NCBI GenBank assembly: GCA_964016885.1 | Contig: OZ024741.1 | Span: 67,456,001 to 67,520,000 of the forward strand | Origin: Eledone cirrhosa | Taxonomy: Eukaryota | Direction: 5' to 3' | Length of the DNA: 64,000 nucleotides | Shown: in pieces, positions 16,251 through 28,229 of the stretch | Numbering within the stretch: position 1 is the first letter of the stretch | How the letters are laid out: the number at the start of each line of letters is the position of its first letter | Translations under genes and position numbers: made by a program | The notes under the pieces: model-generated | Database searches by the model: none | The model's input: the letters and a program-made list of their open reading frames with translations, nothing else | What the model was told of the DNA's origin: nothing

Positions 16251-16293
16251 GTAGTCCTGATGATTTCTAACAAGAATGAAACGCGTAGATTAC
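16251..16293 (+). ncRNA. Minimal type I hammerhead (first of 21 plus-strand copies, every 310 bp to 22451-22493)
   Basis: GTAGTC-CTGATGA-TTTCT-AACA-AGAAT-GAAA-CGCG-TA-GATTAC: 6-bp stem I, canonical CUGAUGA/GAAA core, palindromic CGCG stem III, GUA triplet. Predicted cut after 16287. Confidence 0.85.
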
Positions 16294-19200
16294 TCCCCTT
16301 GCTTTTATCGAGAATCTAATTGTAATACGTGACGTATTCTATTCTATAGCGATTAGGTCTTCAAAATGTTTATTATAAACATACAGAATATTTTCGAATA
16401 TTCTATGTCTATATTCACATATATATCGCTATTTCAGAGCATTTATTCCAATTTCTAATTTCTGCCGGACCGGCAACCGCTCTTTCAAACCAGTTCCTGT
16501 ACACAGCTAAGTATTCTATAAGTCTCTAGCTGTGTCATTCTCGATAGAAGCACTGGATATGTAGTCCTGATGATTTCTAACAAGAATGAAACGCGTAGAT
16601 TACTCCCCTTGCTTTTATCGAGAATCTAATTGTAATACGTGACGTATTCTATTCTATAGCGATTAGGTCTTCAAAATGTTTATTATAAACATACAGAATA
16701 TTTTCGAATATTCTATGTCTATATTCACATATATATCGCTATTTCAGAGCATTTATTCCAATTTCTAATTTCTGCCGGACCGGCAACCGCTCTTTCAAAC
16801 CAGTTCCTGTACACAGCTAAGTATTCTATAAGTCTCTAGCTGTGTCATTCTCGATAGAAGCACTGGATATGTAGTCCTGATGATTTCTAACAAGAATGAA
16901 ACGCGTAGATTACTCCCCTTGCTTTTATCGAGAATCTAATTGTAATACGTGACGTATTCTATTCTATAGCGATTAGGTCTTCAAAATGTTTATTATAAAC
17001 ATACAGAATATTTTCGAATATTCTATGTCTATATTCACATATATATCGCTATTTCAGAGCATTTATTCCAATTTCTAATTTCTGCCGGACCGGCAACCGC
17101 TCTTTCAAACCAGTTCCTGTACACAGCTAAGTATTCTATAAGTCTCTAGCTGTGTCATTCTCGATAGAAGCACTGGATATGTAGTCCTGATGATTTCTAA
17201 CAAGAATGAAACGCGTAGATTACTCCCCTTGCTTTTATCGAGAATCTAATTGTAATACGTGACGTATTCTATTCTATAGCGATTAGGTCTTCAAAATGTT
17301 TATTATAAACATACAGAATATTTTCGAATATTCTATGTCTATATTCACATATATATCGCTATTTCAGAGCATTTATTCCAATTTCTAATTTCTGCCGGAC
17401 CGGCAACCGCTCTTTCAAACCAGTTCCTGTACACAGCTAAGTATTCTATAAGTCTCTAGCTGTGTCATTCTCGATAGAAGCACTGGATATGTAGTCCTGA
17501 TGATTTCTAACAAGAATGAAACGCGTAGATTACTCCCCTTGCTTTTATCGAGAATCTAATTGTAATACGTGACGTATTCTATTCTATAGCGATTAGGTCT
17601 TCAAAATGTTTATTATAAACATACAGAATATTTTCGAATATTCTATGTCTATATTCACATATATATCGCTATTTCAGAGCATTTATTCCAATTTCTAATT
17701 TCTGCCGGACCGGCAACCGCTCTTTCAAACCAGTTCCTGTACACAGCTAAGTATTCTATAAGTCTCTAGCTGTGTCATTCTCGATAGAAGCACTGGATAT
17801 GTAGTCCTGATGATTTCTAACAAGAATGAAACGCGTAGATTACTCCCCTTGCTTTTATCGAGAATCTAATTGTAATACGTGACGTATTCTATTCTATAGC
17901 GATTAGGTCTTCAAAATGTTTATTATAAACATACAGAATATTTTCGAATATTCTATGTCTATATTCACATATATATCGCTATTTCAGAGCATTTATTCCA
18001 ATTTCTAATTTCTGCCGGACCGGCAACCGCTCTTTCAAACCAGTTCCTGTACACAGCTAAGTATTCTATAAGTCTCTAGCTGTGTCATTCTCGATAGAAG
18101 CACTGGATATGTAGTCCTGATGATTTCTAACAAGAATGAAACGCGTAGATTACTCCCCTTGCTTTTATCGAGAATCTAATTGTAATACGTGACGTATTCT
18201 ATTCTATAGCGATTAGGTCTTCAAAATGTTTATTATAAACATACAGAATATTTTCGAATATTCTATGTCTATATTCACATATATATCGCTATTTCAGAGC
18301 ATTTATTCCAATTTCTAATTTCTGCCGGACCGGCAACCGCTCTTTCAAACCAGTTCCTGTACACAGCTAAGTATTCTATAAGTCTCTAGCTGTGTCATTC
18401 TCGATAGAAGCACTGGATATGTAGTCCTGATGATTTCTAACAAGAATGAAACGCGTAGATTACTCCCCTTGCTTTTATCGAGAATCTAATTGTAATACGT
18501 GACGTATTCTATTCTATAGCGATTAGGTCTTCAAAATGTTTATTATAAACATACAGAATATTTTCGAATATTCTATGTCTATATTCACATATATATCGCT
18601 ATTTCAGAGCATTTATTCCAATTTCTAATTTCTGCCGGACCGGCAACCGCTCTTTCAAACCAGTTCCTGTACACAGCTAAGTATTCTATAAGTCTCTAGC
18701 TGTGTCATTCTCGATAGAAGCACTGGATATGTAGTCCTGATGATTTCTAACAAGAATGAAACGCGTAGATTACTCCCCTTGCTTTTATCGAGAATCTAAT
18801 TGTAATACGTGACGTATTCTATTCTATAGCGATTAGGTCTTCAAAATGTTTATTATAAACATACAGAATATTTTCGAATATTCTATGTCTATATTCACAT
18901 ATATATCGCTATTTCAGAGCATTTATTCCAATTTCTAATTTCTGCCGGACCGGCAACCGCTCTTTCAAACCAGTTCCTGTACACAGCTAAGTATTCTATA
19001 AGTCTCTAGCTGTGTCATTCTCGATAGAAGCACTGGATATGTAGTCCTGATGATTTCTAACAAGAATGAAACGCGTAGATTACTCCCCTTGCTTTTATCG
19101 AGAATCTAATTGTAATACGTGACGTATTCTATTCTATAGCGATTAGGTCTTCAAAATGTTTATTATAAACATACAGAATATTTTCGAATATTCTATGTCT

Positions 19201-26830: not shown

Positions 26831-28178
26831 ATATATATGTATATATATGTATATGTGTATATATATGTATATATATGTATATGTGTATATATATATATGT
26901 ATATATATATATATATATATATGTATATGTGTATATATATATATATGTATATGTGTATATATATATATGTATATATATATATATATATATATATATATAT
27001 ATATATATATATATGTATATGTGTGTATATATGTGTATGTATTTGTGTATATGTGTATGTATGTGTGTGTATGTGTGTGTATATATATATATTTTATATA
27101 TATATATATATATATATGTGTGTATGTATATATGAATATATGTATGAATGGTGTATCTCTCTCTCTCTATATATATATATGTATATATATGTATGTATGG
27201 TGCTTTTTCCTTATATATGTGTACATGTGTGTGTGTATATATATATGTATGTATGTGTGTGTGTGTGTGTATGTATATGTATATATTTGTTTATGTATGT
27301 GTATATATATATATATATATATATGTGTGTGTGTTTGTGTGTATGTGTGTGTATATGTATATGTATATATATATGTGTGTATATGTATGTCTTGTATATA
27401 TATATATATATATATATATGTGTGTGTATATATATATATGTATGTGTATGTATGTGTATATGTATACACAAGTATATTTGTATGTATGTATGTATATGTG
27501 TGAGTGTATATATATGTGTATATATGTGTGTGTGTGTGTGTGTGTGTGTATATATGTATGTGTGTATGTGTATATATATATATATATATATGTATATATG
27601 TGTGTATATATATATATATATATAAATATATTTATATATGTGTGTGTGTTTTTATGTGTGTATATGTGTATGTGTATGTGTGTTTATGGTTGCGCGCGAG
27701 TGTGTGAGTGGGTGTGTTTTTTTGTGAATGTGTCTGTTGATTTTTGGCATATAGTTGATTAGTTTAAGAGAAGTTCGAAGATAATTGTAAGATATGCACT
27801 CAGTATTTTGAATCTGTCTACAGAATTCTCTAAACCTTTGTCACTTAGTAGAACCTTAATGAATTTAGCTTTTAAAGAATCTCCCTTTCCTTTAATTCTA
27901 TCTACCATGACTGACCCCCCACTGATCTTATAGACATCTGTTAGCTTAAGAGAAACTTAATGACAAGGAATGGTATGCCATCCGGAACCTGTTTATAGAA
28001 TTTTGTCTGCCTTTGTTACTCTAAAAACAAAAATTAATAAAAATAAACTATAGCTTTGTAGAATTAGCTTTCAATGAATTCACTTTTCTATCAACCAATG
28101 GCCTACACCCATCCCACTCCCCACCCTCTCCTACCACTTGTAGAGACCTATAAATACCATATTTATTTTTTGATACCC

Positions 28179-28229
28179 AGATTCCTGATGATTTCTAAAG
28201 AATGAAACAGTTCTAGTCCTGTAGAATCT
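28179..28229 (+). ncRNA. Type I hammerhead ribozyme
   Basis: AGATTC-CTGATGA-TTTCT-AA-AGAAT-GAAA-CAG-TTCTAGTC-CTG-TA-GAATCT: perfect 6-bp stem I, stem III CAG/CTG, GUA triplet. Confidence 0.8.

Follow-up and report, generated by a model that had tools for sequence, protein, structure and literature searches.

Does a shared ribozyme core identify the element that mobilises a non-coding retrozyme? The question is raised by a stretch of the Eledone cirrhosa genome (contig OZ024741.1 of assembly GCA_964016885.1, positions 67,456,001 to 67,520,000; hereafter the window, 64,000 nt, with all coordinates counted from its first letter), in which a tandem array of a short, hammerhead-bearing unit lies beside a Penelope-like element (PLE) whose own hammerhead has a nearly identical core. 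The enzyme that moves animal retrozymes has so far been inferred rather than demonstrated. An initial annotation of this DNA had read the pair as a direct link between a non-coding retrozyme and a candidate autonomous partner family, which it took to be a coding Naiad. Here, we consider the anatomy of the array, the identity of its neighbour, and the distribution of the core that the two have in common.

Anatomy of the 310-bp array

The array occupies 13680-22652 and consists of two inverted arms built from one unit, every copy of which carries a hammerhead motif:

13680..15979, minus strand: left arm of the array, 7.4 copies of the 310-bp unit
15980..22652, plus strand: right arm of the array, 21.5 copies of the 310-bp unit
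16246..16296, plus strand: type I hammerhead motif of the unit, the first of 21 on this strand, with predicted cleavage after GUA at 16287

Together the arms, joined head to head at 15979/15980, hold 28.9 copies of the unit, which has a GC content of 35%. All seven full units on the minus strand are identical, as are 20 of the 21 full units on the plus strand, the remaining one carrying a single substitution, and the two arms are 100% complementary across 2300 nt. The unit contains no ORF of 120 aa and gave no tblastn match to the PLE proteins of the window. Its plus-strand monomer folds better than 100 of 100 shuffled versions (z -3.6), and the minus strand folds equally well (z -4.1), so that the folding score is not strand-specific. 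The hammerhead itself, present as 28 identical motifs, comprises a 6-bp helix I with a 3-nt bulge and three more pairs, a U.U at the base of helix II, a 6-nt loop 2, and a palindromic 2-bp helix III. With 18.7 bits (E 0.047), the match of this motif to the Rfam model HH9 stays short of the gathering score, which is 52, and at that threshold neither the ribozyme of the array nor that of the neighbour is found.

The ends of the arms can be placed on the monomer relative to the predicted cleavage site. The 5' head of the left arm is position +10 past that site and the 5' head of the right arm is position +3. In a unit of 310 nt, a single head would fall this close by chance with a probability of 0.03, and two independent heads with a probability of 0.001, both being observed at a single locus (n=1). 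The 3' ends fall at +131 to +139 in the left arm, followed by (TA)n, and at +163 to +165 in the right arm, followed by (TA)23; the array is thus bounded by (TA)n on both sides, and its 3' ends are offset by 24-34 nt. A poly(A) tail is absent from both ends. Three coding PLE insertions in the window share the head-to-head layout of the array, and none of their six heads lies near a cleavage site, all being hundreds of bases or more away.

Arms that are perfectly complementary over 2300 nt are also what a long-read fold-back or an assembly error might yield, and the inverted arm and the head positions would then be artefacts. We regard this as highly improbable, because the flanks of the array are not mirror images (the outer inverted repeat is just 88% identical), each end of the array joins (TA)n at a different position of the unit, and three other PLE insertions in the window have the same layout.

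The homogeneity of the copies bears on a further alternative, in which a hammerhead fragment of PLE origin turned into a satellite and was amplified as DNA, by unequal exchange or through circular DNA, with RNA uninvolved. Near-perfect homogeneity also fits a recent expansion of this sort, and a recent preprint invokes local unequal crossover for its retrozymes and reports cleavage for one of nine tested dimers (Li, Clavereau and Pollet, 2026; bioRxiv 10.64898/2026.07.22.740005). Such an expansion does not, however, predict heads at the cleavage site, (TA)n ends, or offset 3' ends, and it appears to us a rather unlikely origin for the array.

Two other features adjoin the array. An inverted repeat of ~340 bp (12702-13042 and 22698-23031, ~88% identical) flanks the array region and possibly represents the arms of an older fold-back element into which the array landed. 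To the left of the array, at 13320-13533, two short pieces of the ribozyme end of the family found at 38 kb point into one (TA)n tract, and both end ~21 nt past the predicted cleavage site, like the family of the neighbour at 24 kb.

The neighbouring element and its ribozyme

The element at 24060-28246 is likewise composed of two inverted arms, and other hammerhead-like cores are scattered through the window:

24060..26830, minus strand: left arm of a 5'-truncated Hydra-clade Penelope-like element, with an endonuclease remnant, a 2.4-kb microsatellite-rich 3' UTR/pLTR, and a hammerhead
24076..24126, minus strand: left-arm hammerhead of the neighbour, with a 3-bp helix II, a 4-nt loop, and a stable 4-bp helix III
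26504..26830, minus strand: remnant of a C-terminal GIY-YIG endonuclease, 108 aa up to its stop codon
26831..28246, plus strand: right arm, an inverted and shorter copy of the neighbour element with 3' UTR and pLTR only
28179..28229, plus strand: right-arm hammerhead of the neighbour, identical to the left-arm hammerhead
1429-1474, 4228-4285, 23595-23655 and 31290-31339: further hammerhead-like cores, of different families
35005-35057, 47601-47666 and 49914-49990: further hammerhead-like cores, of different families

The arms of the neighbour meet head to head at 26830/26831 and are nearly identical across 612 aligned bases. The left arm extends 21 nt past the predicted cleavage site and terminates within a short TA run, and another TA run follows ~65 nt beyond the end of the right arm. 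The GIY-YIG remnant that the initial annotation had reported is indeed present, with CxxC and CxH flanking the conserved E and N. The annotation's description of the element as coding did not hold, as the 108 endonuclease codons are all that remains of its coding sequence and there is no RT in either arm; a stop follows directly after the endonuclease, and then a non-coding 3' UTR.

The assignment to Naiad had to be abandoned as well. Naiad elements are described as having an N-terminal endonuclease, a CxC linker, a DKA motif, an insertion in the fingers domain, and no canonical hammerhead, whereas Hydra-clade PLEs have a C-terminal GIY-YIG endonuclease with CxxC and CxH, an RT with RWK and DKT, and a CxCX5C linker (Craig et al., 2021; PMC8557442). 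The neighbour shares with Naiad the GIY-YIG endonuclease, (TA)n targeting, and inverted structures, but it has neither the N-terminal endonuclease nor the lack of a hammerhead described for Naiad. With the Hydra clade, it shares the C-terminal GIY-YIG, the canonical terminal hammerhead, an inverted truncated copy, and the TA end, and it differs in that this copy is without RT and linker and in its helix II, which occurs in none of the 25 families listed in that source. Because its endonuclease is C-terminal with Hydra motifs, its hammerhead is canonical (a complete type I motif in each arm), and RT is missing, the neighbour is best classed as a Hydra-clade fragment and not as a coding Naiad. 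Judged by its sequence, it is a dead PLE fragment of this clade, without a full protein.

Relatives of the remnant have a similar organisation. A nearly intact element at 37940-45700 has a C-terminal endonuclease with which the remnant shares 48% identity, as well as an RT with RWR and DKT and a CxCX5C linker; another relative, P0024, is a protein of 727 aa with DKT and CxCX5C. A HMMER search with the remnant gave 3252 matches with E no higher than 0.001. Among the top 150, RT similarity was found in 12, upstream of the endonuclease in all 12, while 128 end no more than 30 residues past the endonuclease and 134 have the CxxC and CxH pair. By eye, the remnant also aligns with the Hydra endonucleases of figure S7 in PMC8557442. 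The endonuclease tree does not resolve the sister of the remnant, a weak search found no longer relatives of it among 16 candidates, and no Rfam hammerhead family matches the neighbour's ribozyme at E up to 10.

The window holds several other elements. The nearly intact Hydra-clade element (37940-45708) is a partial tandem with a period of 3254 bp accompanied by an inverted RT fragment; in both copies the reading frame breaks at the same point, close to the end of the RT and ahead of the endonuclease. Its ribozyme differs from the neighbour's, and position 4 of the hammerhead core is a variant A. A third Hydra-type insertion (10424-12018) has inverted ends, an endonuclease remnant, and a hammerhead core that deviates from the consensus. 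Broken LINE-like elements with RT and zf-RVT matches, together with degraded PLE-like RT frames, one of them with DKG, lie at 50808-58962, 61100-64000, and 7500-8800, and a tRNA-like sequence at 4436-4506 (minus strand), possibly a SINE head, sits in a small inverted structure.

The near-identity of the two cores, on which the initial annotation had built its argument, is borne out. Of 30 occurrences of the core pattern in the window, 28 lie in the array (seven on the minus strand, 21 on the plus strand) and two in the neighbour (24097-24120, minus strand; 28185-28208, plus strand); 100 shuffled versions contained none. In a local alignment of the array and neighbour ribozymes, 26 of 28 columns are identical, with a 2-nt gap, and the score of 45 compares with 21.1±2.6 (maximum 35) for 200 shuffles. 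Helix I differs in sequence and yet is paired in either ribozyme; helix III, palindromic in the array, is a 4-bp hairpin in the neighbour, as had been described. Comparison of the pLTR with the 310-bp unit, which the annotation had proposed, revealed nothing outside the core: the 279 nt of the unit that remain when the core is removed score at shuffle level on both strands against the right pLTR (p 0.97 and 0.19) and against the inner arm of the neighbour (p 0.31 and 0.66), and a sensitive BLAST of the unit against the rest of the window gave nothing else better than E 0.078.

How much the core can say about ancestry depends on the bases that are free to vary. Approximately 12 of the 26 identities belong to the universal hammerhead core, and ~10 bases are informative. 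Under a simple random-hairpin model, the match in helix II has p = 0.001 (205 of 200,000), or ~0.008 across the eight other families of the window, values that are optimistic because the match partly follows the metazoan hammerhead consensus (HH9) and the U.U is also present in an axolotl retrozyme. A matching helix II is found in none of the eight other hammerhead-like families of the window and in none of the 25 published Hydra families.

Convergence on an AT-rich hammerhead would be another explanation of the helix II match, in which case the retrozyme would stand outside the Hydra lineage or would have been moved by another RT, such as that of a LINE. The small number of informative bases leaves room for this, as does the structure of the array ribozyme, whose 6-nt loop 2 and bulged helix I are of the canonical metazoan type, unlike the neighbour's 4-nt loop; LINE-like RT remnants are, moreover, present in the window. 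We nevertheless consider convergence very unlikely given the probability per comparison under the simple model, the PLE-type anatomy of the insertion, and the lack of a poly(A) tail at either end. The two ribozymes likely share common descent.

Distribution of the core and of the unit

The core of the array and its neighbour is found outside this pair as well. Among published Hydra families, a U.U at the base of helix II occurs in 14 of 25, and one core, together with the whole helix II stem, is common to eight of the 14 families of Hydra magnipapillata, which differ in the loop (two of the eight rows are identical). As sibling Hydra families share near-identical cores, common descent does not single out the family of the neighbour.

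Sequencing runs point in the same direction. The pLTR stretch 23924-24600 was compared, at 80% likeness, with four of 24 runs (X1, X2, X11, and X21). In X2, 201 contigs diverge from the reference at 24079, and 252 plus 118 diverge at 24123-24124, with mixed continuations (agreement 0.41-0.62), such that hundreds of contigs match the neighbour across the ribozyme only. Summed depth in this run, which is not a copy number, reaches 1.0-2.0 million over the ribozyme versus at most 0.21 million deeper in the pLTR. Two contigs of X1 and one of X11 also match only a ribozyme stretch of 41-45 nt. Read with a one-base offset, the loose letters of the ribozyme-only contigs contain, we infer, two further paired versions of helix I.

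Three contigs of X2 hold a different arrangement, a 78-bp tandem of the ribozyme-bearing end of the neighbour (window 24062-24139) with several junction variants. Pieces of this kind indicate that neighbour-type pLTR ends can form non-coding hammerhead tandems, albeit with a repeat different from the 310-bp unit, and the 78-bp tandem is possibly a newly born mini-retrozyme.

Viral and metagenome contigs, collections that contain little animal DNA, are a poor guide to how generic the core is. The core pattern had no match in viral contigs. Two matches in metagenome contigs were taken as chance, being in prokaryote- or phage-like sequence in which no paired helix I was seen. The neighbour's core was not found in the available supplement text of PMC8557442, in which line breaks could hide it.

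The unit itself (window 16290-16610) is present in near-identical form, with a word share of 0.68-0.86, in 20 runs that span 17 organism labels and 16 studies. None of the runs listed for the unit is of RNA, to which we attach no weight. Near-identity across so many labels probably reflects trace DNA of a high-copy repeat, and the unit is absent from two runs of organism I, from another sample. Organism B has the unit in four runs (word share 0.68-0.86), and in X2, a run of this organism, the pLTR is covered in 30 of 30 bins. Contigs on 23924-24600 number 6583 in X2 versus seven in X1 and 11 in X11; those of X1 and X11 are of low depth, include pieces of host flank, and look like trace DNA of the host lineage. 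X21 yielded 0 reads and so carries no information on this point. Horizontal spread of the unit is not supported, given the resemblance of the low-depth X1 and X11 contigs to trace DNA. The unit and the neighbour family were seen together under a single organism label, B, possibly that of the source species itself.

Could the 310-bp unit nonetheless be descended from the neighbour's own family, with that family as its autonomous partner? The family's ribozyme is the closest to that of the array in the window, compared with eight other hammerhead-like cores, the unit and the family occur together in organism B, and the end of the family forms short tandems in X2. We consider the proposal unlikely, however, because similarity does not extend beyond 28 nt, and other families share as much as 45 nt of ribozyme with the neighbour. 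In addition, the 3' ends of the array (+131-165) differ from that of the neighbour (+21), and the co-occurrence in B would carry little weight if B were the source species. Proximity is uninformative, as the window holds at least eight other hammerhead-like families, one of which (23595-23655) lies closer to the array.

The link proposed by the initial annotation thus survives in part. The array is retrozyme-like, the neighbour is a PLE, and their ribozymes are alike beyond chance; the direct connection between these two families is what falls away. Indeed, the annotation had itself allowed for a generic core with no further similarity or co-distribution, and our findings largely resemble that case, with the core recurring in other contexts and co-distribution seen in B only. 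The array ribozyme likely derives from the same local Hydra-clade ribozyme lineage, without the neighbour being thereby its parent or its partner.

Origin of the array and comparison with known systems

With moderate confidence, we interpret the array as an animal non-LTR retrozyme that was pasted into (TA)n by a PLE enzyme and whose ribozyme lineage is shared with the neighbour. By analogy with other retrozymes, the array would be transcribed throughout, its transcript would self-cleave, with dimers the probable active form in view of the palindromic 2-bp helix III, and the monomer would circularise. The anatomy of the array suggests how insertion may have proceeded: a Penelope-type GIY-YIG endonuclease would nick (TA)n, the RT would start inside the unit, roll round the circle 7 and 21 times, and fall off at the ribozyme site, where the circle is open, and the two cDNA products would be joined head to head. 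More tentatively, and with doubt prevailing, we postulate that the array records a single target-primed rolling-circle event on a ribozyme-made RNA circle, with two cDNAs that started 24-34 nt apart and both stopped at the cleavage site. If true, this would be genomic evidence, from one array locus as regards both target preference and head position (n=1), for the copying of retrozyme circles by Hydra-clade enzymes and for its termination by the ribozyme.

Parts of this scheme have precedents among PLEs. Their insertions are described as having an inverted 5' junction, a (TA)n target, and an optional tail of 30-40 bp (PMC8557442); the 3' offset of 24-34 nt in the array is close to the length of this tail and fits a PLE-type insertion. 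For one PLE studied in vitro, the tail was traced to two internal RT start sites, ribozyme cleavage was dispensable for insertion, and the motif bound by the protein was mapped to the first 172 nt of the ORF (Frangieh et al.; PMC11167929). With cleavage dispensable and the binding motif in the ORF, two elements with the same core need not be served by the same enzyme. Naiad and Neptune elements are also reported to favour (TA)n or microsatellites (PMC8557442), and the anatomy of the array therefore does not fix the clade of the mobilising enzyme.

A connection between retrozymes and PLEs has already been argued in print. The presence of hammerheads in the pLTRs of PLEs has been known since 2014 (PMC4209133), and PLEs were proposed in 2020 as the mobilisers of retrozymes, with a circular template giving rise to tandem cDNA (Cervera and de la Pena, 2020; PMC7229834). 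More recently, retrozymes were presented as non-autonomous derivatives of PLE pLTRs on the basis of co-occurrence and pLTR homology (bioRxiv 10.64898/2026.07.22.740005). What is new here is the insertion anatomy of the array. A literature search, mostly at the level of abstracts and outside subscription journals, found no study of the 310-bp unit or of heads at the cleavage site, and a head-to-head junction at that site, (TA)n ends, and a tail-like offset do not appear in the available portion of PMC7229834.

Sibling PLE families have cores in common, so that the partner of a retrozyme cannot be named from its ribozyme core, and the insertion ends are more telling for the identification of the mobilising enzyme. 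Should further loci of the unit prove to have their heads at the cleavage site, a (TA)n target, and a tail-like offset, the circle-template model would become testable from genome sequence, and a Hydra-clade protein and the 310-nt RNA would form a concrete pair for an in vitro assay.

The closest counterparts of the array are the animal non-LTR retrozymes described by Cervera and de la Pena (PMC7229834), which have the same short, low-GC tandem unit with one type I hammerhead, no ORF, and a self-paired monomer. A unit within ~170-400 bp, a GC content under 45%, and a lack of coding capacity are among the traits of that group, and all three are found in the array. Axolotl retrozyme families include examples of a weak, palindromic helix III and, likewise, of a U.U at the base of helix II, as in the array (PMC7229834), and the anatomy of the array fits the circle-template model put forward in the same work. 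Known non-LTR retrozymes are also expressed, as linear and circular monomer RNA, and self-cleave, and the array would be predicted to do likewise. Among Xenopus retrozymes, 24 of 57 families align with known transposons, nearly all with PLE termini, while in the array the alignment is limited to a 28-nt core; that survey is mainly of vertebrates, and its available text names no Hydra-clade partner (bioRxiv 10.64898/2026.07.22.740005). Measured against these systems, the array is probably one more retrozyme, with a weaker sequence link to PLEs than the published cases and a clean insertion anatomy.
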